The notes beneath the pieces are model-generated. The model saw nothing but the letters and a program-made list of their open reading frames with translations. It did not search any database and was not told the DNA's origin. The translations under genes were made by a program, and so were the position numbers. A stretch of 64,000 nucleotides of DNA from an uncultured virus (IMG/VR IMGVR_UViG_3300029258_003428) (taxonomy: Duplodnaviria > Heunggongvirae > Uroviricota > Caudoviricetes), in IMG/VR virus record IMGVR_UViG_3300029258_003428; one strand, written 5' to 3'. Positions 16,689 to 63,920 of the stretch are shown here, piece by piece (within the stretch, counting starts at the first letter, position 1; every line of letters starts with the position of its first letter).

Positions 16689-16803
16689 GTAAACTCCTTT
16701 CGTTGAATAGCTTATACCGAATTCTCGACGATTTGTGTTGACAATAACTCTGAGTGTGATCTTCTTCGAAAGATCGCTCAAGCCAAAAAACGGAGGTAAC
16801 AGA

Positions 16804-17544: not shown

Positions 17545-17552
17545 GGTGCAGT

Positions 17553-18573: not shown

Positions 18574-18630
18574 TGTGTCCTCCTTTTGCGGTGTTCAAAA
18601 ACAAACTGCGTGTGATTCCGGAACATGATC

Positions 18631-18659
18631 CTTATACCGATCAAATTGCAGAAATTCGG
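18631..18659 (-). promoter_or_regulatory. CCGAAT-N15-GGTATAAG promoter-like motif
   Basis: Intergenic, pointing at the 18573 gene. Confidence 0.65.
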
Positions 18660-18668
18660 AGGTGAGAA

Positions 18669-19325: not shown

Positions 19326-19545
19326 CCAGGTGAATGTGAAGAAAGAAGAGAAGCGTCTGGCAAAACGGGCGCGGAAGATCGGCTTTGATGTGGTGTGGTC
19401 CCCCGTGAATCAGGCATTCTTCATCAAGGAGATGCTCCCGCACGGGATCTACAAGATCAAAGGCATCAAGAGCGACAAGCAAGGAGTCGAGGAATGCCTC
19501 GAGCAGCTCGAGACCACGTTCAACTAGAGAAGGATCGTGTCGCGT

Positions 19546-19964
19546 TGGCGCAGATCACTGATGAGGTGGAGGAGGAGCTCAAGAGGGAAGAGTTGGTGTG
19601 TGTAGAACGTCCACCGACGCGCCGGTGTGTGTCCTACAACAGGTATCCTCGACCGGAAACACATACGGTATGTATGGTGTGCCACGCTCCATGCTGCACG
19701 AAGATGATTGTGGTGTTGGAGCGTAGTGAGGAGGAAAAGTATCCGGTGGAGTATGTTCGCGACTACAAGAGGCCGCGAGCCCGCGCAAGGCTAAAGAGGA
19801 GATCTGACGGTTCCTGCATCTATTTCAACAAGAAAACTGCTCGGTGTGCGCGTTATGGGTCTCGGCCGCTGGCCTGCAGGCAGTTCTTTTGCGGCCGCGG
19901 TGTCCCTTTTGAGGATAGGGTCTGGTTGGACTTGGGGGGAGAACCGGAGGTGGGGGGTGGGTGA
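19546..19964 (+). CDS. YkgJ/CxxCxxCC-family cysteine-cluster protein (start uncertain)
   Basis: CMVCHAPCC...DGSCIYF...CARYGSRPLACRQF. Confidence 0.7.
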
Positions 19965-22167
19965 TAAAGCAGAGACGATGGTCGCCGAGGTGAAGAGCAT
20001 ACGGTACGAGCGGGGGACGTTTCGTATTGTGAGTGTCGAGACTGAATGTATGCAGCGGGAGACGGTACTCGGTGATATCGAGGGTGTGGCGGTGGACATG
20101 GTATACGAGTTTTCTGGGCAGTGGAAAAAGCACCAGGTATACGGGAGGCAGTTTCGCGCCGTGACCGCGGTACCTGTTCGACCTACCAGCTCCTTCGGCG
20201 TACTAGATTTTTTGGAGCAGTTGCCTCAAATAGGTCCGGAGAGGTCGCTTTTGGTGATGGAGCACTTCGACAACGACTACAAAGAAGTGTTCCGGGTCAT
20301 AGAAGAAGAACCAGAGAAACTCGTTGTGATCAAGGGGATTACCGCCGAGCGCGCAGCGGAGATAAAGATCCAGTTCGAAGTGCTGAAGAAGTTCAAGGAC
20401 GACATCATTCTGTTGAAGGGCCTGGGGGTTACTGACCGCCAATGCCGCATCATCATTGAGCATGCGAAATTTCTTGGTAGAACCATCGAAGAGATCTTGG
20501 AGGAAGACCCGTACCAATTTGTCCGCGTACGTGGTCTGAGCTTCGGGGCGGCAGATAAGATCGCCCTGGGTTACGGGATAGACTCTGACGATCCCAGGAG
20601 AGTGGACGCCGTGTTAGAACACGTTCTCGAGTGTGCGACAACGTCCGGACACTGCTTTTTGGATTACATTCTCCTGCGCTCGGAAACGTTGGACTACGGC
20701 ATTGGTGGTGAGACAGCAGAAGAGGGGATAGAACGTCTTTGGGGTGCTGGTCGGCTGGTAGTGGAGCAGGATCACGTGTACCTTGGCAGGTTGTATAGGA
20801 GTGAGGTCGGAGTCAGTGAGGCCCTTCATCGGCTGTCCTATCAACATGACCTTGATGTGGACGAGGTCATGGAGGAGCGTGTAGAAGGTTGGGCGATCGA
20901 GCTCCACAAAGATCAACTCACTGCGGTCAGGAATGCACTGGTTAACAATGTGTCAATTATCACCGGAGGTCCTGGTACTGGGAAGACCACGTGCTTGCGG
21001 AAGATTGTATCCGCGTTGGGCGGTATAGGCATCCGCAACAACATGGTGTTCTGCTGCGCTCCTACGGGAAAAGCAGCCATCCGAATGAAACAGCAGTCCG
21101 GGATAGACGCTAAGACGATTCACAGGTTGCTGGAGGTAGACGCAGAGACGGGCTCGTTCGTGAAGAACGCTGAAAATCCTTTGTATTGCAGCGCGGTCAT
21201 TGTGGATGAGGCATCCATGGTAGACATTGGGTTGATGGCGTCTCTCCTGAGGGCGATGAGTAGCAACACGCGGTTGATCTTGATCGGAGACGTAGACCAG
21301 CTTCCGGCCGTCGGCCCAGGAAACGTTTTGAACGATTTGATCTCTTCCGGGAAGATTGAAACAACGCGACTGACAAAGGTGTTTAGGCAGTCCGAGCATT
21401 CTTGGATCTCCGAGAACGCCTCCGCGATCAAGAACGGAGAAATGCCAAACCTGGACGATGATGACAGCGAGGACTTCTTCTTCAAGGAATGTAACTCGGC
21501 CGCGGATATACCGGACGTCATGGTGGATTTGGTCGGCGAGCTGCGGTCTTCTGGGGTTCTGAAGGACGACATTCAGGTGTTGTGTCCGCAGAAAAAGAAA
21601 GTGATCGGCACAGAGAACTTGAACGAGTTGTTTCAGGAGACGTTTAATCCTCATGAGGACGATAAGCCGTGGTGGTACGCGGCGCAGGGGCGTATCTACT
21701 TGAGGGACAGAGTCATCCACACCATCAACAACTATCAGCTGATGGTGATGAATGGGGAGATTGGGTCTGTGCGGCTGAAGGATGGGGGACTGGACCTTGG
21801 GTACCTACAGGTGGACTACGGAGACAGGAACGTTGATTATGATGTGCTCAACCTTTACGAACTAAGGTTGGCCTACGCCTTGACGGTGCACAAGAGTCAG
21901 GGCAGCGAATACCCGATAGTGATCGTTCCCGTACACGAGCTGAACAAGTTCATGCTGACTCGTAAGTTGTTGTACACGGCAGTTACTAGAGGGAAGGAAC
22001 GAGTCTACCTCATCGGGCAACGGTCTGCCGTGCGGGCCGCGGTACAGAACAACCGCGATGAGTTAAGAAACACCGACCTGATGCGTAGGGTGCTTGACAT
22101 CTTCGATCGTGGGTCCGAAGAGCAGGAAAAACCCGATAACACTCAAAAAGAGGAGGTACCGGAATGA
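19957..22167 (+). CDS. recD2: RecD2-like SF1B DNA helicase
   Basis: N-terminal HhH (QLPQIG, VIKGI), GGPGTGKTT, APTGKAA, VDEASM, GDVDQL, FRQ, YALTVHKSQGSEY, LYTAVTRGK. Confidence 0.92.
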   Translation: MGDKAETMVAEVKSIRYERGTFRIVSVETECMQRETVLGDIEGVAVDMVYEFSGQWKKHQVYGRQFRAVTAVPVRPTSSFGVLDFLEQLPQIGPERSLLVMEHFDNDYKEVFRVIEEEPEKLVVIKGITAERAAEIKIQFEVLKKFKDDIILLKGLGVTDRQCRIIIEHAKFLGRTIEEILEEDPYQFVRVRGLSFGAADKIALGYGIDSDDPRRVDAVLEHVLECATTSGHCFLDYILLRSETLDYGIGGETAEEGIERLWGAGRLVVEQDHVYLGRLYRSEVGVSEALHRLSYQHDLDVDEVMEERVEGWAIELHKDQLTAVRNALVNNVSIITGGPGTGKTTCLRKIVSALGGIGIRNNMVFCCAPTGKAAIRMKQQSGIDAKTIHRLLEVDAETGSFVKNAENPLYCSAVIVDEASMVDIGLMASLLRAMSSNTRLILIGDVDQLPAVGPGNVLNDLISSGKIETTRLTKVFRQSEHSWISENASAIKNGEMPNLDDDDSEDFFFKECNSAADIPDVMVDLVGELRSSGVLKDDIQVLCPQKKKVIGTENLNELFQETFNPHEDDKPWWYAAQGRIYLRDRVIHTINNYQLMVMNGEIGSVRLKDGGLDLGYLQVDYGDRNVDYDVLNLYELRLAYALTVHKSQGSEYPIVIVPVHELNKFMLTRKLLYTAVTRGKERVYLIGQRSAVRAAVQNNRDELRNTDLMRRVLDIFDRGSEEQEKPDNTQKEEVPE

Positions 22168-23082
22168 GCGGATACATGTATTGCACGTGCCGGGATTGCT
22201 TTGAACTGATCGTGGGCGAGGAGGGGGATTACTGCGACGATTGCATCGAGGCGGGGTGTCCGGACTACCAAGGCCAGAAGGGGATGAGTCAGGAGTGTCA
22301 GGGCAAGCACGCGTACGGCACACCGTGCGGAGACCCGAGCTGCTGTCCGCCGGAGGACTACGAGGAGGTGACTGATGAAGCGAGATCCTGATTTGTCTGA
22401 GGAGAGAAACTTCCGTTCGAGGAAGGACCCGATTGGGGGGAGGTTCCTCGGCGGAACCGCAGACTATACGATCACCATGAAGGTCTACGTTCGCTCGGCG
22501 ATAGGTCAGGAGGTCCCAGACCAGAGGACGGTGGAGAACAAGATCACCAGCTTGCTACTGGCCCAGCCGCGGCTGGACGAGGGAGCGTTCTGGGATGTTG
22601 CCGCAACTTCCATTCCGGGCTCTGGAACAGAGTAGGGTGGCCGGGAAGTCCCACTACTGGCGCAGCGTGGTGTGTGAGGGGTGTGAGAGGCGCTGCCGCT
22701 ACAGGGACTTCAGGGTATTTGATCGGAACGGTTTTGCGGACACGAAAGCATCACTCTGGAAAGATGACCCTGACCCGTCCACCTGGCGCTACAAGCGTCG
22801 GGGGACGGTGTTGGGGATCATGCATGAAGAGAAACGACAAATGTGGGAGAGCATGATAGCAAGCTGCCCACACAGGAAGAGAGATGAATGAAGAAGAAAA
22901 GGAAGAAGGGCAAGCCGCCGAAGGACAGGCAGAAGCCGGAGAAGATCAAGTCTGTATGGTATCACGCGAATGGAGATGCAGCGGTGGATCCGCGACATAT
23001 CGAGGTGGAGTTACGAGGACCTCTTGGAGATCCAAAAGGGGTTGCAAGAGGAGGCCCGGGAGGCGATGATCTCTTTGGATAA
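22164..23082 (+). other. cluster of four small hypothetical genes, two Cys-rich
   Basis: Overlapping start/stop ORFs 22164-22391, 22375-22635, about 22637-22891 and 22888-23082. Confidence 0.5.
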
Positions 23083-23096
23083 TCAGGAGAAGAAGG

Positions 23097-23693
23097 ATGG
23101 CGATGAAGGTAACGTATAGATTCGGAGGATATGCGATCCAGGCCGAGACCGGAAGTCTGCTGGCGTTGCTGTGCAGCCAGCTGAGGGTGGAGTTTCCAGA
23201 TCTGGTGATGCGGCGGAAGCGGGATGTGTGGTACCAATACATCGCCCACGTCTTCATCGTGATCTTCACCCTCGGCTTCAATCGAAGGTACTTCGAGTAC
23301 ACGACGACCGGACCAAACGTCATCGACATCTCAGATACGGCGCATGCTCGTATTTGTGCAGGATCTCATTCGGACAGAATCTGGGAGCTGCTGATGCATG
23401 AACGGGTTCACCTGCGGCAGTTCAGAGACCGCGGAAAAGCGGTGATGGTGCTGGACTGGTTGTTCCCGCCGACTATCAGGTGTTACGGCCGGGCCAAGCG
23501 TATCGAGCTGCCAGCGTACCTGGTATCTTTGCAGTGCAAGTTCAGGACGGATAGGGAGTGGGCGGAGAGCAAGGAGTATAGAGAGTGGTGGATCGGCCAG
23601 TTCACCGGGCCGGGGTACGGGTGGTCTTGGACGAAGAGATCTGATGTGGAGAAGTGGTTTGACGACGAGCTAAAACAATTACAAGGAGATTAG
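23097..23693 (+). CDS. HExxH zinc-metallopeptidase-like protein
   Basis: LLMHERVHLRQ followed by IELPAY. Confidence 0.55.
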   Translation: MAMKVTYRFGGYAIQAETGSLLALLCSQLRVEFPDLVMRRKRDVWYQYIAHVFIVIFTLGFNRRYFEYTTTGPNVIDISDTAHARICAGSHSDRIWELLMHERVHLRQFRDRGKAVMVLDWLFPPTIRCYGRAKRIELPAYLVSLQCKFRTDREWAESKEYREWWIGQFTGPGYGWSWTKRSDVEKWFDDELKQLQGD

Positions 23694-23694
23694 A

Positions 23695-23904
23695 GTGGAC
23701 CTACCGAGAGACAAGCTGTACTTCTTCGAGGGCTTCATCAAGAAGGAAGCGCCTTCTGGGAAAGCGTTTCTGCTAGAGGTTGAGGGGGTCGAAGTTTGGG
23801 TTCCCAAGGCTTGCATCGACGACAAGAGCGAGGCGTATGAGGAAGGAGACGAAGGAGAGATCGCAATCCCGCTAGATATGGCAGAGGAGAAAGGACTGGT
23901 GTAA
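23695..23904 (+). CDS. small acidic beta-barrel-type protein
   Basis: KAFLL...EVWVPKACI...IAIPLDMAEEKGL pattern common in phage small proteins. Confidence 0.55.
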   Translation: MDLPRDKLYFFEGFIKKEAPSGKAFLLEVEGVEVWVPKACIDDKSEAYEEGDEGEIAIPLDMAEEKGLV

Positions 23905-24194
23905 TGGATCAAGAAAATGTGAGGGTGACTCCGCAGGCGCTGGGGGCGTTGGTGTGGATGGGTTCCGTGGCGAAGGAGGTGACGGCTGAGTGGTTGGCGA
24001 AGAAGATGGAGATCGAAGTCGGGGATGTTATCAGCACACTCGACAGAATGGAGCGGGCCGGCGTTGTGGAGGACGTGGACGCGGAGCGTTTCTATCTGAC
24101 TGATGGCGGGTGTGGGCTCTACGATGCGATATACAGTTCTGTGGTCGCGGTGAGTGAAGACAAGGAGTTGATGGGGGAGTCCGATGCTGAATAG
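23904..24194 (+). CDS. winged-helix protein
   Basis: TAEWLAKKM...VISTLDRMERAGVVE...FYLTDGG. Confidence 0.55.
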   Translation: MDQENVRVTPQALGALVWMGSVAKEVTAEWLAKKMEIEVGDVISTLDRMERAGVVEDVDAERFYLTDGGCGLYDAIYSSVVAVSEDKELMGESDAE

Positions 24195-24414
24195 CTACAA
24201 CCGCGTAAAGGTCTTCAGCGCGACCAAGGCTAGAGATCGAGAAGAGCTGGGAGAGAGGGTGACAGAGTGGATGGCCGACTACGATGGGGAGGTTGTGGAC
24301 ACGGTGATTACGCAGTCCTCCGATAGGGAGTTCCACTGCTTCACCATCACGCTGTTCTGCACAGAAGATCCTAATCCACAGCCAAAGCGGAAGAGGAGGA
24401 GAAATGGTGGATAG
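24184..24414 (+). CDS. small conserved protein of a Myxococcales-type family
   Basis: VKVFSATKARDREELGERVTEW...TQSSDREFHCFTITLF, recalled from myxobacterial genomes. Confidence 0.6.
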   Translation: MLNSYNRVKVFSATKARDREELGERVTEWMADYDGEVVDTVITQSSDREFHCFTITLFCTEDPNPQPKRKRRRNGG

Positions 24415-25962
24415 CCCTCTCCAACACGTAGCGATCCAGACAACTCTCGGAGCGTTCTACGTCTTCCCAGATCTTACGGCGGAGATGGTGGTGGAGCTGC
24501 GACAGCACCTCGAGGCAAAGACCGACAATGTTGTGGTCCGCAATATCAGCGGCGCAGCGATGACGGTTCCGCGGAAGATCATTGAGTTGGTTGGCACTCT
24601 CTACGATGGGCCGGAGATACAACCAGCGCACCCGACACACCCCGCCCCCGGGGTTGTGGTGTTCTGGAGAAAGCAGTGAAAAAGAAGAAGACACCGCCGG
24701 GCCGGTTCTTGATCAAGAGGCTTGATGCCATTCCCCCAGACGGCGGGCTCGATCTGACCAAGAAGCTGGTCAAGAACTTTTTGGCGATCAATGTGAAGTA
24801 TGCTGGCGACCTGAAACAGCTCGCCGAGCGGTACGGGCTGCACTATCTTCGGTCCAAGAGAATGCGCAAGGCGGAGCTCGTGCAATGGATCGCCGATCAT
24901 CATCCGGCAGTGCGGATGCTGGAGGGAAAGTACATGATCGGCGTCGATTGGGGTAGTCGGGAGGACCTGTCGGCGTGTGTGGTTTACAAAATGGGGCCGG
25001 AGGGGGGACTGAGACTCGTTGCCATCAAGGAGGACAAGCGATGGACGAATATGATAGCGCAGCAGGAAGAGACAAGGAGTACGACGAAGCCTTGAACGAG
25101 AAGGCTCGGGGGATGCGGGGCAGGGATGGGGCGGACGTGCCGCCTTTCATGCGTGAGCGCGTGGCCTTCCTGAAGAAGATCCGGAACTCCCGGTTCCGCT
25201 GGCGGCCCTCTACCTACGGTTATGATCCGAACAAGTACAGCCCTGAGGTCGTGGAGGAGTTCGTGGGTGCTGTGGAGGAGACCCTGCCACCGGGTGCGTT
25301 CATGGCGCTGTTTGTGATCTTGGCCACCGGCCACGAGCCGATGCTGGGGTCGTTCGACGGGAGGGTGCAGAACGATATGAGATCGTTTTACGGGTTCTGG
25401 TTGGGGGTGAATGGGCGGACCAGGTCAAATATCCTCGACAAGATGCGGATCCGTTTGTATGAGGAGCAGCACAAGAAGTACGTCGAGGCCTTCCATAAGA
25501 AGGCCAGGGCGGAGGAGGCATCTGGAAAATGATCTTCAATATCGGAGACCCGGTGTGGAACGCGGCCCTGGTAGAGAAGCTGGTCTATGTTTCTCACGAA
25601 GAGGCATCACATGCGCTCCAGCTCTACACAGAGGACGTGAAGGATGACATTGCGGCGAGGAAGGTGATGGGGGCCCTGCCAGCTCGGGTGCGCATCCAGG
25701 AGAAGAATCTTTCGTCTTTGGCGGAGTTCTTTGTGCTTCAGACGTTCTTTCATCACCAGAAGCATTTGCAAGATCGGTGGGGCAATAGGCGAGTGATTTG
25801 GATCACAATGCAGGACGCACATGGAGAACCGGAGGAGTACGCACGGAGGGCCCACTTCTTGTTGTGGTCTGAGGAGGAGGATATGTTCAAGGGTGCGGAG
25901 TTGAAGCTGGAGAACGGAGTTGTCATCACCTTTGATCATCAACCGGGGGCGGAGGGAAGCAA

Positions 25963-26493
25963 ATGAGCTTTGTAGAAGAGTTTGGAAAGATCGTAATCAT
26001 CTTGCGGGCCCCACCAGGGGCCGGCAAGACGACATTTGCCTCGTTTCTACGCGAAATGATCAAGCACACGCAGATCACCACGACATATGTCTCGATGGAT
26101 GCCATCAGGGAATCAGAAGGGAGGAAGTTTTCCTACACCAACCTGCAGGAAGACGTACGGAAGATGGATAGAATGTTCGATGCGGCGGTGGAGGGCGGGA
26201 TCAACATCATCATTCTGGACAATACTCACTCTCGAGAGTGGGAGTACGCCCGAAAGAAGGACAAGGCCGAGAGGTACGGCTACACGGTCTTCCTCATCGA
26301 GGTCCAGTCGGACTTCTGGACTTGCCTGCGACGGCAGAAGCACGGAGTCCCGTTCTACAAGATGCAGGAGATGTTCGATCGGTGGGAGTCACCAATTCGT
26401 CGTGGGAAAGATCGAATCAAGGACATGGAAGCTGAGTTAAACAACATCATAGAGGCATTCAAGCCTTCTACCAAATCGATGGAGAGCGACTGA
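25963..26493 (+). CDS. P-loop kinase (AAA_33 / N4BP2-like polynucleotide kinase family)
   Basis: LRAPPGAGKTT, IIILDNTHSREWE, RQKHGVP. Confidence 0.75.
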   Translation: MSFVEEFGKIVIILRAPPGAGKTTFASFLREMIKHTQITTTYVSMDAIRESEGRKFSYTNLQEDVRKMDRMFDAAVEGGINIIILDNTHSREWEYARKKDKAERYGYTVFLIEVQSDFWTCLRRQKHGVPFYKMQEMFDRWESPIRRGKDRIKDMEAELNNIIEAFKPSTKSMESD

Positions 26494-27215
26494 TGAAGAC
26501 GATCGATGTGAAAGATGCTCGAGCAATCCTGGACGCGATGAAGCAGGCCCAGGAGGCCAAGGGGGGAGAGAAGGACAAGAAGAAGACCACAATGCCGACG
26601 AAGGAAGAGATCGAGGTGGCGGTGGCGTCCGTGGTGCTCGAGGAGCAGAAGACGTGGCCGGAGTGGATCGTCGAGATCATCGGTGGTTGGACGCCCAGCA
26701 AGGCGTCATTTTCCAAGGGCGTGCCGTACGTCATTGGCGCGTACATGCACCACGCGTTGGAGCGACTACGTGAAGAGACACACAAGAAGGTTCGGGAAAC
26801 GGAGCTGGAATCGGTGAGGGAGATGGGGTCGGTCAGCATCGAGTTGAAGGAGAGGGAGGAGATGTTCAAGCAGTCGACGGCTGATACCATCTCCGATCTC
26901 GAGAAGGAGAGGAACAGCAAGCTCAAGCAGCTAGATAATCTGAGGGCTGAGATCCACGAGGAGTACAACGAGCTTTTCAAGGCTCTTCGCGAAGTTGATC
27001 CCCCGGACGACATCCTAGAGCTGCGAGAGAAGAGGAAGTTCATCGAGAAGGAGTACGACGCCGCGGTGGACGAACTGGAGCTGGAGTACAAGGAGTTGAA
27101 GGAGCAGATCATAGCCATTGACGAGGCGAAGGAGAACTGGAACTCTAAGGGACGCAAGAAGAAGCGCAAAGCCGAGAAGGAAGAAGCTGGCGAGCAGGCC
27201 AAGCAGCAGGTATAA
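26493..27215 (+). CDS. coiled-coil protein
   Basis: E/K-rich heptads. Confidence 0.6.
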   Translation: MKTIDVKDARAILDAMKQAQEAKGGEKDKKKTTMPTKEEIEVAVASVVLEEQKTWPEWIVEIIGGWTPSKASFSKGVPYVIGAYMHHALERLREETHKKVRETELESVREMGSVSIELKEREEMFKQSTADTISDLEKERNSKLKQLDNLRAEIHEEYNELFKALREVDPPDDILELREKRKFIEKEYDAAVDELELEYKELKEQIIAIDEAKENWNSKGRKKKRKAEKEEAGEQAKQQV

Positions 27216-27223
27216 TCCGCCGC

Positions 27224-27622
27224 ATGGAGAAGCTCAGCTACGATGATCCCAAGCGTCCCAAGATCTTGGCACTGGACCTTGATGGGACGTTGTTGCACTA
27301 CGACGGGTACTCCCCGGACATGTTCGGGGAGCCCGTTCGTGGCATGGCCCGCGAACTCGAGCGGATTCGAGATGAAGGATGGAAGATCGTAATCTGGACG
27401 TGTCGAAAGGACACCCCAGAGCTGAGGAAGCACCTGAAGGACAATGAGGTGCCGTTCGATTACATTAACGATCATCCCTGGAACGGGCCGGACGACCCTC
27501 GGAAGATTCATGCTGACGTCTACGCAGACGATAAGGGATTGTCCTTCACTGGAATCGCGGATGGCTTCGCAGATCGTGTGCTACATCACCAGCCGTGGTG
27601 GCAGCAGGCCGCGTGGCTGTAG
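27224..27622 (+). CDS. HAD-superfamily phosphatase
   Basis: LDLDGTL, IWTCR, RKIHADVYADDK. Confidence 0.8.
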   Translation: MEKLSYDDPKRPKILALDLDGTLLHYDGYSPDMFGEPVRGMARELERIRDEGWKIVIWTCRKDTPELRKHLKDNEVPFDYINDHPWNGPDDPRKIHADVYADDKGLSFTGIADGFADRVLHHQPWWQQAAWL

Positions 27623-27935
27623 CGCACGATTTTAGGTGGGATATGGAACTGTTCAAGGAGCACGTCTTGGGGGATGACCTGTACGGTGTAGCGTTCGCAC
27701 CGACGTCGTTTTTCGTTCTCAACTGGATGGCTGGTCTGGTTGAGATCCACGATATTATTTGGCTGCCGAGGAAGCAGGCGATGTTCTTCGTCGTCAGCAG
27801 CAAGGACAAGTCCGGCATCCTGTTCAAATCGGGGCTAATCAGCGGGACAAAGATCGGGGGCTTCAAGCCGTCGAAGCAGTCCATCATGGTCGAGTGGCCG
27901 AGGGGCCACCACATACTAGGAATCGGAGGTAACTG

Positions 27936-28349
27936 ATGTGGACCATTCTCAGGGCCGTAACAGGGGAGAAGTTTCTCTGCAAGACAGAGGCAAACCTTCA
28001 GCAAGCAGCCATCGAGCGCAAGCCTGTCATGATCACGGAGGTGTACGAGGTCCTCTCGTTGAACATGAACATGCCGGGTGGGCTCATGAAGCGCTTGACT
28101 CGGATCACCTTCATGGATTTTCAGGAGCGGGGACCGCTGCCAAAGATGTTCGTGGTCCCGGCGGGGTGGTACGAGCCAGACCAGGCCTTCATCGAGGCCC
28201 AGCTTCAGCAGATGAAACGCGACATGGAGCAGGCCGCAGAGCAGGAGAAGAAGATCATGGAGGAGATCCAGCGCCAGCAGTCTCCTCTTGCTCAAGTGCA
28301 CATGGTGCCGAAGATGAGTCCGGTCGACCCAAGGATGCGTCGCCGGTAG
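27936..28349 (+). CDS. hypothetical protein
   Basis: GGAGG RBS. Confidence 0.6.
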   Translation: MWTILRAVTGEKFLCKTEANLQQAAIERKPVMITEVYEVLSLNMNMPGGLMKRLTRITFMDFQERGPLPKMFVVPAGWYEPDQAFIEAQLQQMKRDMEQAAEQEKKIMEEIQRQQSPLAQVHMVPKMSPVDPRMRRR

Positions 28350-28652
28350 AACTCCGCCCAGGCTTCGGCCTGTGCATGAATTGCAACAACCCAACGAAGG
28401 GCAGATACAACTACCGAGGTGTCATTGTCTGCTCTCACTGTTTCTCGCTCGCCCAGATGTGCGACAGGCGGGCGGTGAAGCAGGTGCGTGATTTACTCGC
28501 TGTCTATCGCGAGTCTCTTCGTGTGTCGCTCGCCAGCGGCAAGCTGCGCCCGTCCTCTCAGATCCCAGACAAGGACACTAAGGTGTCCAAGCTCCCGCCT
28601 CAGGAGGAGCTTCGGCGCGTGCTTCAGGGCCTCGCCGATATCAAAAAGCGAT

Positions 28653-28681
28653 CCGAATAGATCGTCCGTTCTCGGTATAAG
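28653..28681 (+). promoter_or_regulatory. CCGAAT-N15-GGTATAAG promoter-like motif
   Basis: About 35 bp upstream of ATG 28716, which has an AAAGGAGG RBS. Confidence 0.65.
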
Positions 28682-28715
28682 CTCTTTAAGAGACAATTTC
28701 AAAGGAGGACTTACA

Positions 28716-29210
28716 ATGTGTGCAGAGTTTTCTCTAATTTGTCCTCGGTGCTCAGCACCGCCCGAGGATGCTCGTTTGGCTGTTGTATCTGGGAGGTTTA
28801 GTGCTCGGAGTATGCCTTTAAACGATGACGGATTCAGTCCCACGGACGCGAGGGGCTTCGATACCGATGATGAGGTGGTGCACTGCTCGATGTGTGATAG
28901 CCGGTTTCCTATCGGGGAATGCCTTATAGGTAATCACCTCGTTCATGCGGAAGAGTTGGAGATCTGGGGAATGGCGGATATGGGTGACGGGCGGCTGACA
29001 GCGACCACGGAGATCTTGGGCACTAATATGCACGTCACCTTCATCCGTGTGGAGAAGAACAGCAACCACATCCAGATCGCTAAACATCCGATTGCACAGA
29101 ACATGTATACGCATCTGTGCATGATGGATCCCGGAGGTCCCTTCCGGACGGTGCAGCTGGCTGATCGGGACGGAGAGTGGGTTATGATCATCACACCGTT
29201 TCAGGAGTAG
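28716..29210 (+). CDS. hypothetical protein with Zn-ribbon motifs
   Basis: CPRC...CSMC; strong RBS. Confidence 0.6.
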   Translation: MCAEFSLICPRCSAPPEDARLAVVSGRFSARSMPLNDDGFSPTDARGFDTDDEVVHCSMCDSRFPIGECLIGNHLVHAEELEIWGMADMGDGRLTATTEILGTNMHVTFIRVEKNSNHIQIAKHPIAQNMYTHLCMMDPGGPFRTVQLADRDGEWVMIITPFQE

Positions 29211-29214
29211 CACG

Positions 29215-29697
29215 ATGGCTAACAACTACATGCAGTTCAGCGAGAAGATCGACGGTTTGACGCCGGAGGCGGCAGAGTGGGTCGAGACCGTTCTGGGATT
29301 CCGGGATGACTACGAGGATGAGGAAGCGGCCAAGGCCGCACTGGCCGACTTGTTGGGGGTGGAAAAGGAGGAGCTGGCGGAGCTGGTGGACCTCGACATG
29401 GACTTTTGGCCTAACTTCGATTGGCAGGTGGAGGGAGCAAAGAAGAGCTCGTTGTGGCTCACGGACAATGGCGAGAGCTTCGGATTCGACGAGCTCGTGC
29501 TGTTCGTTCACGCGCTGATCAAGAAGTGGATGCCTGACCACATCTTCACGATGACGTGGGCCGGCACCTGCTCCAAGCCCCGGCTTGGGGAGTTCGGAGG
29601 GGGTTGGGCGGTGGTGACCAAGGATGTGGTGGACTACGAGGACACCTGGGCGGAGGTCAACGCCAGGGTCAAGAAGTACCAGAAAGAGGGAGCATGA
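29215..29697 (+). CDS. conserved acidic hypothetical protein
   Basis: MANNYMQFS...WAGTCSKPRLGEFGGG motif; AGGAG RBS. Confidence 0.65.
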   Translation: MANNYMQFSEKIDGLTPEAAEWVETVLGFRDDYEDEEAAKAALADLLGVEKEELAELVDLDMDFWPNFDWQVEGAKKSSLWLTDNGESFGFDELVLFVHALIKKWMPDHIFTMTWAGTCSKPRLGEFGGGWAVVTKDVVDYEDTWAEVNARVKKYQKEGA

Positions 29698-30226
29698 GAT
29701 GATCGAGGCATTCAAGCCGGGAACGAGGGTACGGTTTGTTCTTTCACCTGGCATGGGGGGAGGTCTGGGGGGCAGGGCGAAGATCTCTGATAAGATCCCT
29801 ACTGGGAAGTGGGACTGGAAGATTCCAGGATATTGGGGTGAGGGATTCTACTTGGTGGAGTCGGTGCCGGAGCAGCGGAAGATGCTGGTCAACGAAGACG
29901 ATCTGGTGCTGGACGTCAACTTGGGCACGTCGGAGCCCAACCACTGCCGTTGGGGCACGAGGCACTTGTTCAGGCAGGGGATTTGTATCAGCCACGTGGC
30001 TGTAGGTGGTGTACTAGATCATGAAGACGGGAAGTTCGAGGTGTACTTGGCGGGGAACCCAAAGTCCACACACATCGGCACAGCTCCTACGATGGACAGA
30101 GCGAAGGTGACGGCATTGAGGTTCTTCACCAAGTATCCAGAGTTGGTGATCAAAGACCACGATGAGATGGACTGGAAGAAGTTTTGGTCGACCAAGAAAT
30201 CCTTGCAAGGACAAGAGGAGGAGTAG

Positions 30227-31576
30227 GTGCTGTACAAACTGGAGCTGATGCGTGAGAAGATTCAGAAGGCGATCAGGACCCACCATATCCACATTCTCAA
30301 AGAGTTGAACGGAGCGCCACACGAGACCTACCTAGATTTTTCAAAAGCGTTGGGAGGCGTAGAAGCGGTTGTGGATGCGGTTATTGGAGCACACGAAGGA
30401 GATGTGCTAGAGGAGAGGGAGGCGGGGTCTGTTCTCAAGAAGAAGATTCAACTGCTAGAGGAAGAGCTCGCCGGGTTGGATGACGTCTGGGAGTCGAAAC
30501 TGCACGACGCTATCATAGATCGTGCTCGGATCCTGCGAGATCGAAACCGTATGGAGGAGTTGATAGAGGACTTGGAGGGGCGGGTGCGGGAGTCTGCCAG
30601 AGCTGAGAAGGAGACCAGGCGGGAGTTGGGCAAGGCTGAGGAAGAGCGTGTGCGTGCCGTGCGCGGTAAAGCTGGTGCGGAGCAACGCCTGGAGCAGGAG
30701 AAGAGATCTTTGGAGGAGGCTCGTAAGGAACTGGTAAGGTTGCGGGCGGAGCTAGATCAATACAGAAGGGGCGATGCGCCGTATAAGGGCGTCGCAACGA
30801 GGAAGACCAGGGAGGCCAAGCAGCTCAGTCAACAGGTAAACGATCTTCGCAGGGAGATCTCCGATTATGAAGATCTGTTAATCGCAGAGACTCCCACATC
30901 GAGCGAATATCTGGCCATGGTGCCGTCGTTCTCCGACACCATCAACGAAGACCCACCCACCCCAGAGGATAATGTGGTCTATTTGAGGCTTTGTGATGCC
31001 GTAGATTACATTTTGTCCACTCTGACTCCGAGGGAGGAGAAGGTATTGAGGATGCGATTTGGCATTGGCGAGAAGTCGGACCACACGTTAGAGGAGGTCG
31101 CGCGTGCATTTGGTTTAAGTAGGGAGCGTATTAGGATGATCGAGGCCAAGGCCATGCGCAAGCTACGGAATCCAAGCAGGGCCAAATTTGTCAAGAGCTT
31201 CTTGGGAGATCATAGGGACGGATGGGTTGGACTTAGTGCTAGCAGGCGCAGGTGGGTAGGGAACATTCAACGGTTGTGGTCAGTGGAGTGTTCCGCTGCC
31301 GAGACAAAGAAGAAAGAGAAGAAGAAGAAGAAGACGACGACAACAAGGAGAAGGGCTGTGGGGCAGAAGAGCGGACGAGGCAAGGAAGAGATGGTGAGAT
31401 CGAAATTGCGCCGGATGATGATACGCAGGGGCGGGGTACCATACAGGGAGTTTGTGGAGAAGACTGGTATTGACATCACGACAGGCCAGTACGCTCGATG
31501 TCTACGCGCCGTGCGTGAGGAGAAGGGGATCTACGTGCCGCGCGGCGGGAAGAAGAAGAAGGGGGGTGTGCGGTGA
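30227..31576 (+). CDS. coiled-coil protein fused to an RpoD-like sigma-70 region 4
   Basis: LSTLTPREEKVLRMRFGIGEKSDHTLEEVARAFGLSRERIRMIEAKAMRKLRNPSR; no recognisable sigma region 2. Confidence 0.85.
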   Translation: MLYKLELMREKIQKAIRTHHIHILKELNGAPHETYLDFSKALGGVEAVVDAVIGAHEGDVLEEREAGSVLKKKIQLLEEELAGLDDVWESKLHDAIIDRARILRDRNRMEELIEDLEGRVRESARAEKETRRELGKAEEERVRAVRGKAGAEQRLEQEKRSLEEARKELVRLRAELDQYRRGDAPYKGVATRKTREAKQLSQQVNDLRREISDYEDLLIAETPTSSEYLAMVPSFSDTINEDPPTPEDNVVYLRLCDAVDYILSTLTPREEKVLRMRFGIGEKSDHTLEEVARAFGLSRERIRMIEAKAMRKLRNPSRAKFVKSFLGDHRDGWVGLSASRRRWVGNIQRLWSVECSAAETKKKEKKKKKTTTTRRRAVGQKSGRGKEEMVRSKLRRMMIRRGGVPYREFVEKTGIDITTGQYARCLRAVREEKGIYVPRGGKKKKGGVR

Positions 31577-55350: not shown

Positions 55351-55635
55351 ATGAGCTATCTGGTATGTGGTATCTACGACAAACGTCCGGAGGTGTGCCG
55401 GCAATATCCGAACCGCTACAGCTACATGCCAGATAGCTGTGGTTACTTCTTCAGCGACAAGCGGGAGGGGTGTTGCTATCTGGAGTGTCAGGCGGCTTGT
55501 TGTATGGAGCCGCGGGAGGGCGGAGAGCCGGGAGGGGCACCTCTGCCCGACATCGCCGGGGGCGAGCCATGCAAGTATCTCATTTCCGTGGATGAGCCGC
55601 CAGAGGGCGCTATAATCGAGAGGCCAGAGGAGTGA
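55351..55635 (+). CDS. YkgJ-like cysteine-cluster protein
   Basis: CGIYDKRPEVCRQYP...CYLECQAACC. Confidence 0.6.
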   Translation: MSYLVCGIYDKRPEVCRQYPNRYSYMPDSCGYFFSDKREGCCYLECQAACCMEPREGGEPGGAPLPDIAGGEPCKYLISVDEPPEGAIIERPEE

Positions 55636-56276
55636 TGGGACGCAAGCTCAGGAAGTTGTCCGAGGGTGAAGAAGTTGAGGTTCCTGCTTTCCTGCAGGAC
55701 GCGCGGGTCGTGGTAGTAGACACTGAGACGACGGGGTTCGACAGTAAGAGGGACAGGATCATTGAGATTGGAGCAATTTGGATCAACCGCGGTAGGGTCG
55801 TCACCGAGTTCGGTCGCATCTTGAATCCTGGACGAAGGCTGCCGCTGGACATCATGAAGCTGACGGGGATCACACAGAGCGAGGTGGATGCGGCAGACCC
55901 TTTCTGGAAGATCTCCAGTTTCGTGGTAGATCTTCTCGAGGCTCCATCCGTCATTGTGGCGTACAACAGTCCATTCGACATGGGTTTTTTGAAGAGCGAG
56001 ATCGAAAGGGCTGGGCGGGAAGTTCCACGCTTCGGTCCCGTTATCGATCCACTCAAGTGGACGCGGCACGAAGATCGAGGTAAGAGTTGCAAGCTGGGCG
56101 TTGCTGCGGCGAGGCGCGGCATCGAGGTAGAAGGAGCTCACCGGGCGGTGGACGACTGTAGGATCACTTTGGCGTTGATGAACACGCTCAAGTTCCCGAG
56201 CACCTTGTCTCAGACCATCGAAAATCAGAAGCACTTGAAGACCAACAACTATCGCAGACGCGGTGGTATAAGGTAG
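55632..56276 (+). CDS. DnaQ-like DEDDh 3'-5' exonuclease
   Basis: VVDTETTG, IIEIG, AYNSPFD, AHRAVDDC. Confidence 0.88.
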   Translation: MMGRKLRKLSEGEEVEVPAFLQDARVVVVDTETTGFDSKRDRIIEIGAIWINRGRVVTEFGRILNPGRRLPLDIMKLTGITQSEVDAADPFWKISSFVVDLLEAPSVIVAYNSPFDMGFLKSEIERAGREVPRFGPVIDPLKWTRHEDRGKSCKLGVAAARRGIEVEGAHRAVDDCRITLALMNTLKFPSTLSQTIENQKHLKTNNYRRRGGIR

Positions 56277-56305
56277 CCAACCGAAACCACTTAGCGGAGG
56301 AAGAA

Positions 56306-57130
56306 ATGCCAGGAGTAACTGAAGAGAACATCAAGCACTGGTTAAGGATGGACATACCGAAGGAGCTGTTGGAGGCGTTGGACGCATCGAGGAAGCTGGG
56401 CGGGTCATACATAGAGGACCTGCTCAAGAAGGGGATCTATAGGTTGGAGGAGATGTACGGCGACCAGGCGGAGCTCAACCTGGACTCGGTGATCGCAGAG
56501 GCGATCCAGAGCTTCACGGAGAAGCAGAGGAAGACCTCCGAGAACAGGTCCTCCCTGGACGACGCGAAGCGGACGACGGAGACGGTGGACAAGCAGGAGG
56601 TCGAGGTCGTCGTGAAACACGAGGTGGACGGGGAATCCTTCGAGCGGCGGTACTTGCTTGATCAGGCTTCCATCAATCAAAACAGGCAGTACAGCAAGGA
56701 GTACGACGAAAATGGCAGATGTGCGGACATCGTGCCGGTCGGAAAGCCATACCTCGTGGTGACTGGTGTAGTGGTCGGGGGGAGTAACTCCCCGGCTAAA
56801 GATCTGCAAGTGTGCGCGGACAAGATCAAAGATCTGCAAGTGTACGCGGACAAGATCGCAGACCGGCTAAGTCTGGAGGTCACGTGGTGCGGAAGGACCA
56901 TGGCAACGCTGGAGATAGACGAGAGGACACTGGTAGCGGGAGACAAGCCAGTCGACGAGCTCGTCGCCGGCTTTTGCGATCGAGCGGCGCGGGAGATCAA
57001 CATACCGAACGTGTCGGCGAAGGACATCCACAGGGAACTCTCGCTCGCTGTCGGATCGCGCTACGAAGAAATCGCTGCCCAGTCACCGGTAAACGAGTCC
57101 CCAGCGTCAGAAAGATCAAGCGAAAGCTAG
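56306..57130 (+). CDS. hypothetical protein
   Basis: GGAGG RBS; GGTATAAG motif at 56265-56272. Confidence 0.6.
   Translation: MPGVTEENIKHWLRMDIPKELLEALDASRKLGGSYIEDLLKKGIYRLEEMYGDQAELNLDSVIAEAIQSFTEKQRKTSENRSSLDDAKRTTETVDKQEVEVVVKHEVDGESFERRYLLDQASINQNRQYSKEYDENGRCADIVPVGKPYLVVTGVVVGGSNSPAKDLQVCADKIKDLQVYADKIADRLSLEVTWCGRTMATLEIDERTLVAGDKPVDELVAGFCDRAAREINIPNVSAKDIHRELSLAVGSRYEEIAAQSPVNESPASERSSES
56798..56857 (+). repeat. 30-bp in-frame tandem duplication
   Basis: AAAGATCTGCAAGTGT(G/A)CGCGGACAAGATC twice, one mismatch. Confidence 0.9.
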
Positions 57131-57698
57131 ACGGGAGGATCAAGGTATGGATGGGGTTCCCACGGGACTGGCTTCCGGATGTCGCGCAAGTGATCGCAGA
57201 GGTTCTGCACGAGAACGCTCTGCGGCGCGGCATACCGGAGACCGTTCGACGATCGGAAATCGTTCTGGAGGGAAGGAATCCGTTGTTGATGTCCTCGACA
57301 CACACGACCACCATGAAAGATGGGGCAAAGATCCCTACGTGGCGGGGCAAGAAGTTCGAGGGCAGGGAGTCGCTGAAACAAGCGATCTCGGACCTGATGG
57401 ATGGCGTAGATGAAGATGACGGTAGAGGTGCTTTTGGGAATCCAGCTGGAAGATTCCGGTACGATGCTTTCGCCAAAGAATTTGCGGCCATCGGGGCGGG
57501 TGTACGCAACGAAGATGGCGTTCAAGGCGTTGTGCAAGATTCTGCACGAGAAATACGGGATTGGACTGGACGTGGTGAGTCAGTCGGCCGAGGCCGCATC
57601 ATCGATGTGCAGTATGATCGCCAACGGGGACATGGACTGGGAAGAGAACAACCTGATTCGAAAGAAGCGCGAGATGCTTCGCAGGAGGACAAGGAAAA

Positions 57699-58364
57699 AT
57701 GCAAGCCTGGATAGAGATGATCAAACAAAATAAGGTCACATTCGTCATTGGTGGGCTGATCGTCATTCTGGCCATTGGCGGTGTCATCTACGGCATTGCC
57801 ACGAAGGCCGGGGATGAAGGGTTTCACGCGGCGGCGGACGGGACAGTCCTGAAGTGGGACCGCTCGGCCCTGCCGCTGACTTGCTTTCACGACACATTCC
57901 CCAATGAGGAGCACCAGGCTGCGCTGAAGGAGGCGATCGGGAAGATCTCCAAGGCTGGGATATCGGCGTTCATGCCGTGCCAGCCTTGGATGGTCTCCGA
58001 TCCCTTCCCCACAAAGCACGTCAAAAACACGGTCTTGATCAAGGTTGGCGCTCCGCCGGAGCCAGAACGAGAAGTGGTGGTCACTTCTCCGTTCGAACCG
58101 AAGCACGGGGCGTCCACATTTTTAGCTCATGTCAAGGGAAAAGGGATCTACGGCGCGATCGTTTATATCATGCCAGACCTTGATAAGAAGCTGTACGGTA
58201 GGGTCTACCTGCACGAGCTTTTGCACGCCCTGGGCTTGACACACGACCGTGTTCGCGATTCGATTATGTATCCGACAGCAGCAGAGAGGGCCACCGACCT
58301 GTCCAGTAAGGACACTAAACTACTGCTGAAAACCTACGGAGAGCGGAACGATGAGCCTAGCTGA
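57699..58364 (+). CDS. membrane-anchored matrixin/metzincin-type metalloprotease
   Basis: N-terminal TM helix; HELLHALGLTH and Met-turn SIMYP. Confidence 0.8.
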   Translation: MQAWIEMIKQNKVTFVIGGLIVILAIGGVIYGIATKAGDEGFHAAADGTVLKWDRSALPLTCFHDTFPNEEHQAALKEAIGKISKAGISAFMPCQPWMVSDPFPTKHVKNTVLIKVGAPPEPEREVVVTSPFEPKHGASTFLAHVKGKGIYGAIVYIMPDLDKKLYGRVYLHELLHALGLTHDRVRDSIMYPTAAERATDLSSKDTKLLLKTYGERNDEPS

Positions 58365-61170: not shown

Positions 61171-61235
61171 GGCTGATTGCGGTCTGGTCTTTACGTCACA
61201 GAGCACTCAAGTACCCACCTGATTAATCATTTTGT

Positions 61236-61266
61236 AGCTAAGAAAAGACAGCCCGGCCGGGCTGCC
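61236..61266 (-). terminator. intrinsic terminator closing the array transcript
   Basis: On -: GGCAGCCC-GGCC-GGGCTGTC hairpin followed by TTTTCTTAGCT. Confidence 0.8.
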
Positions 61267-61268
61267 TC

Positions 61269-62365
61269 AGGATGGCATGGATTGAGAAGGAGTGTCAGAG
61301 CGATCGGGTCTGGATCAGATCGTCGAACTGGTGGGGACCGGACCGCGTTGGGTTGTCGCCACGATCAGGTCTGGCAGGATATGGACTGTCGAGTTGGTTA
61401 GATAAGGGCTGTCGCGCCGTGACGGACTGCGCCGTGCGGAGGGGGGACGTCGACTAGGCGCGAGCGGGAGTGGTCAGGCATGGTTCGTCTGATCGCGGGG
61501 GACCGGGCAGGAGAAGGCTTGTCAGATCGAGAGGGATTGGCCTGTTCCAGCTCGTCGCGAAGGCTTGGCTTATCAGTTAGGCCCGGCCAGGTCTGTCAGC
61601 TGCGTGGTGCGTGAGGGCCGGATCGGGCATGTCGAATCGGATGACGACGAGGTGCGGGTGGGCCAGTCAGCTTGGGTGGGGTTGAGGAGCGACGGCATGG
61701 GATGTCGGCCGGGGCGGGCGTGAACTGGAGCGGGTTGTCGGCTTTGCCAGCACCGGCTCGCAACGGCTCGTAATGAATCGGACCGTCGAAGTGGATGGGC
61801 TAGGAGGGGAGAGGGGAGGCTTGTCAGCACGGGGTGAGGTGGATAGGTCAGGAATGTCGAGCAGTCTCGGCTGGTTTAGGGTTGGCTTGTCAGGCAGGAG
61901 CGGTCCGGTGTAGATCGGATTGTCCAGTCGGTTGGAACAGGCAAGGCATGTCGAGCAGGGAAGGCGCGGCTGATCTTGGCCCGTCGATTAGGATGGGTAG
62001 GGATTGGCTTGTCGGAATGGATCGAATGGGCTTGTCTATGCGGACGGGGACCGAGCGGACCAGGAGAGGTGAGTCGATCTGAAGTGGATGGGCGCGAACC
62101 GGAAGGGTCTGTCGAAAGGTTTGGGATGGGCGGGGACAAGACAGGTGCGTCAGAATGAGGGGGCTCGAGTGAGAGCGAGTGGGTGAGTCGACCCGGCTTG
62201 GTACGCGGTGGTCCGGCATGTCAGCTCGAGAGGAACCGGCTTGGTCTGTCGGACTGGTGTGGTGTGTATGGGACTGTCTCGTCGGGATCGGGTTGGTTTG
62301 ATTTGGCGAGGTGTGTCAGGAGGGTCTAAGGTGGGTGGGACCGTGTTGGCTTGTACGGGATAGTC
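61269..62365 (-). ncRNA. non-coding array of about 33 units, GAC-(NNN-CC)n; putative multi-guide precursor RNA
   Basis: On +, each unit is (GG-NNN)n-GTC; 28 of 33 units are exactly 5n+3 nt (18-48 nt); lies between the RAMP gene stop and a terminator; no credible ORF. Confidence 0.8.
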
Positions 62366-62377
62366 TCAGTGTCTTGT

Positions 62378-63199
62378 CTAGGCCGCCTTGCCCTTTTTGG
62401 GAACCTTCGTCTTGGGAGCCTTCGTCTTGGGCTTGGGCAGCGAGCCCTTCTGGAGCTCCTCGACGGTGAGGAACTTGACGCGGCCGAAGCCCTGGGACCT
62501 CGAGCAGCCGAAGCCGTTATCTTGCGCCAGCTGCATGCAGTAGGTCAAGAACTCCTCGCTCATCCGCTTATCCTTCGGATCGGCAAACCATATCTCGAAC
62601 TCGATGTAGGTACCGGGTTCCACGTAGTCGTGAAACTTGATCGTACTGCGCGGCCCCTGGGGGCCGATGACGTGCGCCACCGTCTCTTCATGCCCGTCCG
62701 GCTCCACCAGCCGCTTCCTGTCCGCTTCCTTGTGTCCCTTGTCGTATAGGTAGACGCGGTCTGGGTGCTCGCAGCCCCGGATGAAGAATGAGTGCTGTAA
62801 GATCTGACGAACGCCGCGGTGTACGTTGGTCAGCCCCAGCACCGTTGCGGTCTCCTTGAAGCCGGCCTTGAGTTGCCGCGTCTCCAGAAAGATGCCATGT
62901 CCTTCCGGTTCGATCTTGTCCGGCTCCGCCTTGAACCCCGTCCAGGACTTGAGCTTCGCCTTCTCGCTCTCCTCTATGTCGTCATCGGACGACATCTCCT
63001 GGACGCGGGCTCTGGCCGCCTCCACGGTCTCGTCCTTGACCAGGCCCTTGCGGTGTCGTGCCTCGAGCATGGCCAGCTCGGATTCCGGATGTTTTGGCCA
63101 GCCGCCGAGCAGCCGGTTGGCCGTGACCATTGTCACCTTGTACTTCGTGTAGATGTTGACGTCGTGTTCGCGAACTAGTTCCTCAAAAGTCCTCTCCAT
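62378..63199 (-). CDS. Cas7/RAMP-superfamily-like protein (stand-alone)
   Basis: N-terminal strand YKVTMVTANRLLGGWP; FLETRQLKAGFKE helix; HDYVEPGTYIEFEIWF strand; C-terminal Gly loop GFGCSRSQGFGRVKF; AAGGAGATC RBS. Confidence 0.8.
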   Translation of the reverse strand: MERTFEELVREHDVNIYTKYKVTMVTANRLLGGWPKHPESELAMLEARHRKGLVKDETVEAARARVQEMSSDDDIEESEKAKLKSWTGFKAEPDKIEPEGHGIFLETRQLKAGFKETATVLGLTNVHRGVRQILQHSFFIRGCEHPDRVYLYDKGHKEADRKRLVEPDGHEETVAHVIGPQGPRSTIKFHDYVEPGTYIEFEIWFADPKDKRMSEEFLTYCMQLAQDNGFGCSRSQGFGRVKFLTVEELQKGSLPKPKTKAPKTKVPKKGKAA

Positions 63200-63239: not shown

Positions 63240-63920
63240 TTAGCGCTCCCAAAGAATTGTGAGTTCGTCGTCCTGTACGTGGATCCATCCGCCAGACGTC
63301 TTGTTCTGGTATACTTGCACTACTTGCTGGCACCAGGGCGGCGGCGGGCCGTTCCACATGGACAAGGCCCCTTCGAGCCTGACAAACTCTCCGGCGTCAG
63401 GCTCGAAACATCCCACAGGTAGCGTGACCCGCGGCTTGGGAGTCCTGGGCGTCCCCCAGGTCTTCGATTTCGTCTTCGATTCCAGCAGCGCGATGTAGAA
63501 GTTCCTCAATGGGATACAAGCCCCTTTCTCGATCAATGTGACCTGTTTCTCTTTCCACTCGTCCTGCCACAGCTCCTCATCGATCTCGTGCAGCGTCCCA
63601 TCCCGTCCGGCTTCTACGATCTTCCCCTCGTGTAGGAAAGCGTAGAGGTTTCCTCCTTTGCACCAACCGAGGGCGGGGATCAAATCGCGCGGAACCATCT
63701 GTCCGATGTCGTCCCACTCCACCAGGTGCATGTAGAACGTTCTGTCCTCTGCACCACTCGCCCAGACCTTGCGCCCATTGACGCTGATCTTCACATGACA
63801 GAAGTGTCCCAGCTGCTTGACGCGTCCTGAGCGCTTGATGATGCCGATCATGGGCAAATCCGGTTTGGGGCCTTCAACCCCAAACCAGATCTGCTTGACG
63901 TACCAACTGTACTCACTCAC
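63240..63920 (-). CDS. hypothetical protein upstream of the RAMP gene
   Basis: GTG start with GGAG RBS; 40-bp gap to the RAMP gene; no motif recognised. Confidence 0.6.
   Translation of the reverse strand: MSEYSWYVKQIWFGVEGPKPDLPMIGIIKRSGRVKQLGHFCHVKISVNGRKVWASGAEDRTFYMHLVEWDDIGQMVPRDLIPALGWCKGGNLYAFLHEGKIVEAGRDGTLHEIDEELWQDEWKEKQVTLIEKGACIPLRNFYIALLESKTKSKTWGTPRTPKPRVTLPVGCFEPDAGEFVRLEGALSMWNGPPPPWCQQVVQVYQNKTSGGWIHVQDDELTILWER

Follow-up and report, generated by a model that had tools for sequence, protein, structure and literature searches.

We report that a 64,000-nucleotide stretch of DNA from an uncultured Caudoviricetes virus (hereafter the window) probably encodes an RNA-guided phage system with C-rich repeats and approximately 33 short guides that resembles the VIPR silencers described in 2026, a reading to which we assign a probability of roughly 0.7. 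The system would comprise a stand-alone RAMP gene of the Cas7 group (62378-63199, minus strand, 273 aa) and, next to it on the same strand, an array of candidate guide RNAs (61269-62365). If correct, this reading gives the VIPR code a second scaffold alphabet and carries it into a large unnamed protein family, and one 273-aa protein with dozens of 23-48-nt guides per transcript would constitute a compact multiplex silencer. Moreover, arrays of this kind reveal where guide boundaries lie, and they make testable both the release of tail-less guides and the origin of new guides without Cas1/Cas2.

The array lies between a small zinc-ribbon gene on the plus strand, which ends at 61127, and the RAMP gene, and the span between these two genes shows the strongest 5-nt GG periodicity of the whole window. 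On the gene strand it consists of 33 GAC-headed units with a 5-nt scaffold/NN period and the formula GAC-NN-(nYC-NN)k-nxy, that is, n dinucleotides and n+1 triplets per unit. The unit length becomes 5n+3 because neighbouring units meet scaffold triplet to scaffold triplet, without an intervening NN, and the register moves by 2 at the junction. Such quantised lengths had been proposed in a sequence-only reading for 61490..62317; the quantisation was borne out, while the true span is wider. Specifically, using a delimiter rule blind to length (each GTC on the plus strand without a preceding G, 61266-62365), 25 of 34 intervals were of the 5n+3 class compared to 79 of 508 in the window before position 61000 (binomial p 2.6e-11). 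A phase-tracking parse blind to GTC placed 19 of its 38 non-5 steps directly after a GTC triplet, and the proposal that the register is maintained within units is also supported. In the 33-unit parse, which was curated by hand, 28 units are 5n+3 with lengths of 18, 23, 28, 33, 38 and 48 nt, all as listed earlier, and the remaining five comprise three 5n+4 units, one of 36 nt and one of 35 nt. The number of steps, n, is 5-7 in 27 of the 33 units and ranges overall from 3 to 9, giving an address of 6-18 nt (mostly 10-14) per unit. Internal scaffold triplets of the regular units have C at two positions on the minus strand (99/138 and 130/138); read on the plus strand, G occupies scaffold position 1 in 146 of 155 cases and the third position has no Y preference. 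Within the window no NN strings are common to different units. Contigs from four public DNA runs, possibly the window's own source, carry an identical array stretch.

Several features of the array deserve separate mention. A variant delimiter, already recognised in the sequence-only reading, is present at 61572-61574 (minus strand; GAT on the RNA strand, ATC on the plus strand). Two units have n = 9, one at 61740-61787 (minus strand), whose triplets spell the peptide GDIEVEGWK, and one adjoining the RAMP gene (62318-62365, minus strand); no target was found for either in the scans described below. Two remnant units of 5 and 8 nt follow at 62366-62380 (minus strand), and the first GAC overlaps the RAMP stop codon. 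At the far end of the array, a GC-rich hairpin with a short U-rich run after it (61245-61268, minus strand) is a possible terminator; the fold was estimated at -17.5 kcal/mol over 51 nt, and the hairpin is absent from the output of a consensus terminator scan. Just past the array end, the word TTAGCTA was seen by eye on the C-rich strand in the window (61235-61244) and in two loci of RAMP relatives (L032 at ≈3615 and L004 at ≈4885; L-numbers denote such loci and G-numbers whole virus records).

The length exceptions had been taken to follow a rule, namely an extra T directly after GTC on the plus strand in the three +1 units, outside the periodic body. The co-occurrence holds: all three start with T on the plus strand, i.e. 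end in A on the RNA strand, compared to none of the 28 regular units (Fisher p 2e-4, post hoc). The placement outside the periodic body is favoured by scaffold scoring for one unit only, that of 39 nt at 62279-62317 (minus strand), for which a terminal extra A is the best parse (16.9 bits). For the 34-nt unit at 61490-61523 and the 39-nt unit at 62037-62075 (both minus strand) an internal extra base scores better, 10.1 vs 6.6 bits and 12.9 vs 10.6 bits, i.e. by 3.5 and 2.3 bits, respectively. As a general rule the extra 3' A fails, since none of the 70 distinct +1 units of other loci ends in A; among 73 +1 units the extra base fits best in the 3' tail for 43 and further inside for 25. Units of 5n+2 and 5n+4 are common in some relatives, and one array of L002 is dominated by 5n+2 (10/19) and one of L013 by 5n+4 (10/24). 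Given these +1 tails and off-class arrays in relatives, tail length is flexible across the family and the extra A is local to the three units. The +1 units would be tolerated slips, mostly in the 3' tail, with no separate rule. The other irregular pair, confirmed here, consists of neighbouring units of 36 and 35 nt (61598-61668, minus strand; 61598-61633 and 61634-61668), corresponding to 33+3 and 38-3; one may have gained a scaffold triplet and the other lost one.

The RAMP protein has a G-loop (GFGCSRSQGFG) and a Lys-rich tail. Its structure model (pLDDT 84) retrieved Csm3/Cas7 structures with Foldseek, and Csm3 was the best match using VIA-align (Z 13.8, rmsd 3.9, 164 aligned). The RRM core, thumb and G-loop are all present in this lone RAMP, and the locus is minimal and non-CRISPR. 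Searches against Pfam and PHROGs gave no named family, and the nearest Atlas clusters are viral and without name; a 20-sequence profile retrieved 1506 clusters at E<=0.001 and 904 (50% identity clusters) at E<=1e-10. For comparison with canonical Vipr, hhalign gave a probability of 90% over 139 columns to one canonical clade, cross-HMM scores reached at most 17 bits (-1.6 for the window's own protein), and the Vipr of Escherichia phage SUSP1 matched the family at a pairwise E of 0.004 and was missing from the PDB matches at E<=1; the canonical Vipr clade retrieves SUSP1 Vipr at 3.6e-7. At the level of sequence comparison the likeness to canonical Vipr is therefore real but distant. We dropped the suggestion that the protein is closer in sequence to Csm3 than to Vipr, which a 20-sequence profile gave at 1e-5 and for which an 80-sequence profile gave nothing at E<=0.01. 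A 15-bp tandem repeat (62397-62431) encodes the Lys/Pro-rich tail, and similar tails are present across the closest relatives.

The window is part of a complete virus record of 178 kb with terminal repeats (G001), which has one gene of the RAMP family and one array. No match to Cas1, Cas2, Cas6, canonical Vipr or CRISPR-like repeats was found in the complete record, in keeping with the earlier statement that Cas1 and Cas2 are absent. The gene directly upstream of the RAMP gene (63240-63920, minus strand, 226 aa) matched no family and had no counterpart in 90 related loci, and is therefore not taken as a partner.

Arrays of the same design accompany relatives of the RAMP gene. Without any length filter, 5n+3 intervals account for 32 of 54 in L004, 34 of 48 in L032, 24 of 42 in L036 and 20 of 31 in L039, and quantisation is loose in L012 and L023. 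Across 359 units, a set that includes the window and one duplicate locus, the counts for 5n+3, 5n+4 and 5n+2 were 246, 77 and 36; the parser admits only those classes and these numbers are thus no test of quantisation. In the relatives the third scaffold position and the two NN positions have an almost even base composition, and the xy preceding GAC is locus specific (GC, TC, CC or CT). The first NN after GAC is biased (AA 62, GA 46 and TA 45 of 349, with CG 3 and CT 4) and later NN differ; it may be part of a handle, yet it matched the target in the L013 unit discussed below. One array (L006:5790-6200) has the delimiter TGC-AAC in place of xy-GAC, with 7 of 9 units being 5n+3; this delimiter may resemble the 3' ends of class 1 CRISPR repeats. 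In a close relative with 45% identity, ≈3 kb separate the RAMP gene from its downstream array, whose decay is further advanced (L001:8700-9300).

Related arrays also differ in ways that bear on their history. L039, L040, L042, L076, L078 and L080 have end units in common, exact unit duplicates and single pentamers gained or lost. Judged from the sequences, differences by whole units, duplicates and pentamers would fit recombination or slippage that takes place at GAC and keeps the register; nothing in the comparison pointed to where new address sequence comes from. Between close unit pairs, change at the third base was not significantly above that at NN (9/23, p 0.19).

VIPR guides pair via NN and skip one target base at each step (10.64898/2026.04.26.720920). 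We searched viral contigs with exact 18-base gapped patterns of this 1-nt-skip type derived from seven long units, which gave 2, 0, 0, 1, 0, 0 and 113 matches. The 113 matches, in 103 distinct contexts, belong to one unit of L013. For all of them the sense frame is open and the skipped base is the wobble (third codon) base, and the tenth dinucleotide was also matched in 90, so that all 10 dinucleotides are accounted for in these. The peptide encoded there is NAADYGVPQT, a stretch conserved in C5 DNA methyltransferases, and PF00145 was present in the three matches checked. This unit had been chosen for its antisense likeness to an L007 peptide, and the matches came in the sense reading. The unit that follows it fits the next codons in 16 and 22 of the 113 matches for its first two steps and then in 0, 0, 0 and 0; both first steps fit in 7 of the 113, and 16 of the 349 units would do so by chance. 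The last NN of the unit before it depends on the parse. The footprint ends at or just past the GAC junction, and the match of 10 dinucleotides followed by a stop within two steps supports that junctions bound separate guides. The record of L001 (G002) has a methylase-like stretch with 3 mismatches from this unit, and another observation in L013 is that the unit at L013:6191-6234 gives the antisense reading AHEYGHL, which we take to be an HExxH-like metallopeptidase motif.

A second match is suggestive: one L007 unit matched 20/20, antisense and wobble aligned, in a terminase nuclease gene. It is a single match (p ≈0.05, a rough estimate), the exact peptide is present in only 7 of 120 homologs, and the other L007 units had no match in that genome. 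When the 349 distinct units are taken together, the NN within each of them show a coherent sense-like or antisense-like character (z 4.4-5.2). This coherence is not explained by purine or GC content and remained after dropping identical pairs (z 4.1); scoring NN as codon positions 2-3 also passes and other position pairs mostly fail, and coherence within a unit differs weakly from that across the junction (r 0.11 vs 0.06).

For the window itself, only 2 of the 33 units are long enough for the collection scan, 31 being too short. The two n = 9 units gave 2 and 0 exact viral matches, the two being unrelated and at chance level, and in a phylum scan at one mismatch they matched 4 and 1 of 201 genomes compared to 1 and 0 for controls, which we take as chance. 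Self-targets were not above shuffles in the window and its flank (8 decodings) and showed no excess in four whole records including G001 (9 decodings each; z -2.5 to +2.8 in 36 tests). Likewise, a search of 0.5 Mb of related loci under 5 decodings, using every second unit from a set of 317, gave no target excess, and neither did other units against the methylase loci. The 1-nt-skip wobble code is supported for the unit of one relative and would apply to the units of the window by extension.

Together these data suggest how the system might work. The RAMP gene and the array would be on one minus-strand transcript, along which the RAMP, by analogy with canonical VIPR, would polymerise with a subunit at every 5-nt step; for canonical VIPR a stoichiometry of one protomer to each repeat has been shown (10.64898/2026.04.26.720927). 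Each subunit would hold an nYC triplet and expose the following NN, which would pair with target DNA such that each third target base, the wobble base in genes, is skipped. Each GAC would open a new guide with the register shifted by 2, and filament length may, on this analogy, vary per guide. The likely job would be silencing of genes of rival phages or other mobile elements. Points that count against this model are that no target was found for any unit of the window and that five of the seven patterns gave nothing useful, that 10-14 specified bases are few for a bacterial genome, that quantisation is loose in L012 and L023, that the terminase match stands alone, that close unit pairs lack a significant surplus of third-base change, and that the coherence gap at junctions is weak.

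We lean slightly towards cleavage at GAC, and since no Cas6 or ribozyme was found the cutter would be the RAMP itself or a host RNase. The principal competing view, which we judge somewhat less likely, is that GAC stays uncut and the array remains one long RNA, often within an mRNA, in which the register shift caps or nucleates each filament. It gains from the lack of Cas6, of an Rfam match and of hairpins between units, from arrays that often lead straight into the downstream gene, and from the fit of the next unit's first two NN in the 7 methylase matches noted above. On the other hand, a fixed GAC with a locus-specific preceding dinucleotide exceeds what a register shift needs, the RAMP retains its G-loop, and the legend to fig. 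S18 of the VIPR report mentions processed vrRNAs in tail-to-head arrays (10.64898/2026.04.26.720920).

A further alternative concerns the code: all three free bases of each step might pair, giving 3n contiguous target bases and no skip, in which case short guides become specific. The third bases of the L013 unit do spell the consensus NAADYGVPQT and agree at 4.53 of 10 positions vs 2.81 expected (p 0.019; best match 28/30), and across units a codon-like dependence links the third base to the NN before it (z 2.8-4.5). We nevertheless regard this as unlikely: no L013 match covers all 30 bases, the dependence is also present in antisense-like units and may be a general triplet bias, one third base of the L007 unit would create a stop in the matched frame, and third bases vary between near-identical units. 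A partly target-like third base may have been copied at acquisition, or it may pair. More speculative, and quite improbable in our view, is that lone Cas7-group proteins of a separate lineage read multi-guide arrays resembling those of CRISPR. There the entire "repeat" would be a word of 3-5 nt that ends in AC and is cut by the RAMP itself, and new guides would be made by copying target DNA in three-base steps and inserting a CC spacer, the third base often remaining target-like. If true, such a lineage would be an extant form between VIPR and repeat-spacer CRISPR, and would offer a way into the question of how guides are acquired without Cas1/Cas2.

The model of separate C-rich guides presupposes that the minus strand is the RNA, which is probable from its sequence context. 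An array was detectable in 30 of 72 non-redundant loci and its C-rich strand is the gene strand in 30 of 30, irrespective of whether the array is upstream or downstream of the RAMP gene. Of 39 arrays, 20 are followed by a ribosome binding site (RBS) and start codon on the C-rich strand and 3 on the G-rich strand, and arrays often start at a stop codon, that of the window included. Under a looser rule two arrays are opposite to the RAMP gene (L064 and L072); in both, reading along the C-rich strand of the array leads into a start codon. In L003, a single strand carries both a canonical Vipr, accompanied by GGY arrays, and a RAMP of the family, followed at once by a GAC/C-rich array; the order at L003:3350-5880 is a vap-like gene, a canonical Vipr of 191 aa with GGY vrRNAs, the family RAMP with a short GAC/C-rich array and a further GGY vrRNA (the single-sequence fold of this Vipr reached a pLDDT of only 31). 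In SUSP1 the gene strand is the one that bears the GG repeats. Since all 30 arrays are C-rich on the gene strand and the GGY vrRNAs of L003 are on that same strand, the RNA is probably C-rich, and the earlier choice of the minus strand as sense is supported as the most likely by gene co-orientation and RBS context. Our own initial reading of the plus strand as VIPR-like GG repeats was set aside on this context evidence. In its elaborated form, the G-rich strand would be an NNNGG-type VIPR array antisense to the gene, perhaps "staggered", in which GTC ends the guides. It matches the alternative consensus NNNGG (10.64898/2026.04.26.720920) in the G count given above, nCC-NN being the reverse complement of that form; target matches are blind to strand, in L036 a promoter-like site was seen by eye on the G-rich strand, aimed into the array (-35 only 3/6), and the possible terminator hairpin of the window is absent from the terminator scan, which also speaks against the C-rich strand. 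We consider it very unlikely, as the arrays occupy the gap from stop codon to next RBS on the C-rich strand, co-orientation is complete, L003 has both array kinds on one strand, no sigma-70-like promoter was found near 61200 and the plus-strand third position shows no Y preference. Surveys that seek GG repeats on both strands may assign C-rich arrays to the wrong strand.

That there is no guide array at all, the stretch being a tandem repeat in decay or else a decoy directed antisense against the GGY vrRNAs of other phages, would agree with the units of the window lacking targets, with a scaffold complementary to GG repeats and with the excess of adjacent identical NN expected from slippage (150 vs 100), but is hardly credible given 113 wobble-aligned matches for one unit, the close association with a single RAMP family across 30 loci and the lack of NN strings common to units within the window.

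With VIPR type II as in SUSP1 the window shares a lone phage RAMP, 5-nt scaffold/NN repeats, the lack of cas genes and of self-targets and, in a relative, the 1-nt skip on the wobble base. It differs in having scaffold nYC rather than GGY on the probable RNA strand, 3-9 rather than 9-16 steps, 33 abutting units with GAC junctions instead of four RNAs with structured tails, a protein that is only distantly related, and no conserved vap that we could see; the array had no match in Rfam and its units abut without a structured 3' tail. The locus fits a broad definition of VIPR, with a stand-alone RAMP, adjacent 5-nt triplet/NN repeats and, in relatives, a 1-nt-skip code. We file it as a VIPR variant and not as a type II member because it lacks both a GGY scaffold on the probable RNA strand and a run of 9-16 repeats that ends in a tail. 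As judged by the figure legend, the "staggered" VIPR arrays (fig. S18) are similar in that guides run end to start with register changes; those are a 1-nt overlap of GGY/NN-type RNAs, whereas here the shift is 2 nt at a fixed GAC. Non-canonical VIPR clusters with 5-nt repeats and a triplet other than GGY, e.g. GAC/NN and CAC/NN, appear in passages of Sun et al. (10.64898/2026.10.21.760802), and like the window they combine a Vipr-like fold with 5-nt repeats and a fixed non-GGY triplet; in those passages GAC is the repeating triplet, unlike its single occurrence per unit as a junction here, and the passages contain no unit structure, strand argument or target. Non-canonical triplets and staggered arrays are already published. 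For C-rich, GAC-punctuated arrays we found no account in the literature; figures, tables and data files of the VIPR papers might contain one. With class 1 CRISPR-Cas the system has in common the Cas7-group fold and many variable guides split by a constant word, and it is distinguished by the lack of 23-47-nt repeats and of Cas1/2/6 and by a 5-nt gapped code instead of contiguous spacers.

Two minor observations concern the surroundings. A GGY run at L004:1-160, in a record (G005) in which no canonical Vipr was found, is a possible orphan vrRNA. Finally, the majority of the other genes in the window has no name; the Pfam matches, at 14369-31573 and 55632-58361, comprise a thymidylate kinase, DUF6884, an SLT transglycosylase, RNase HII, a RecD2 helicase, an AAA kinase, a protein with sigma-70 region 4, a DEDDh exonuclease and a matrixin-like peptidase.
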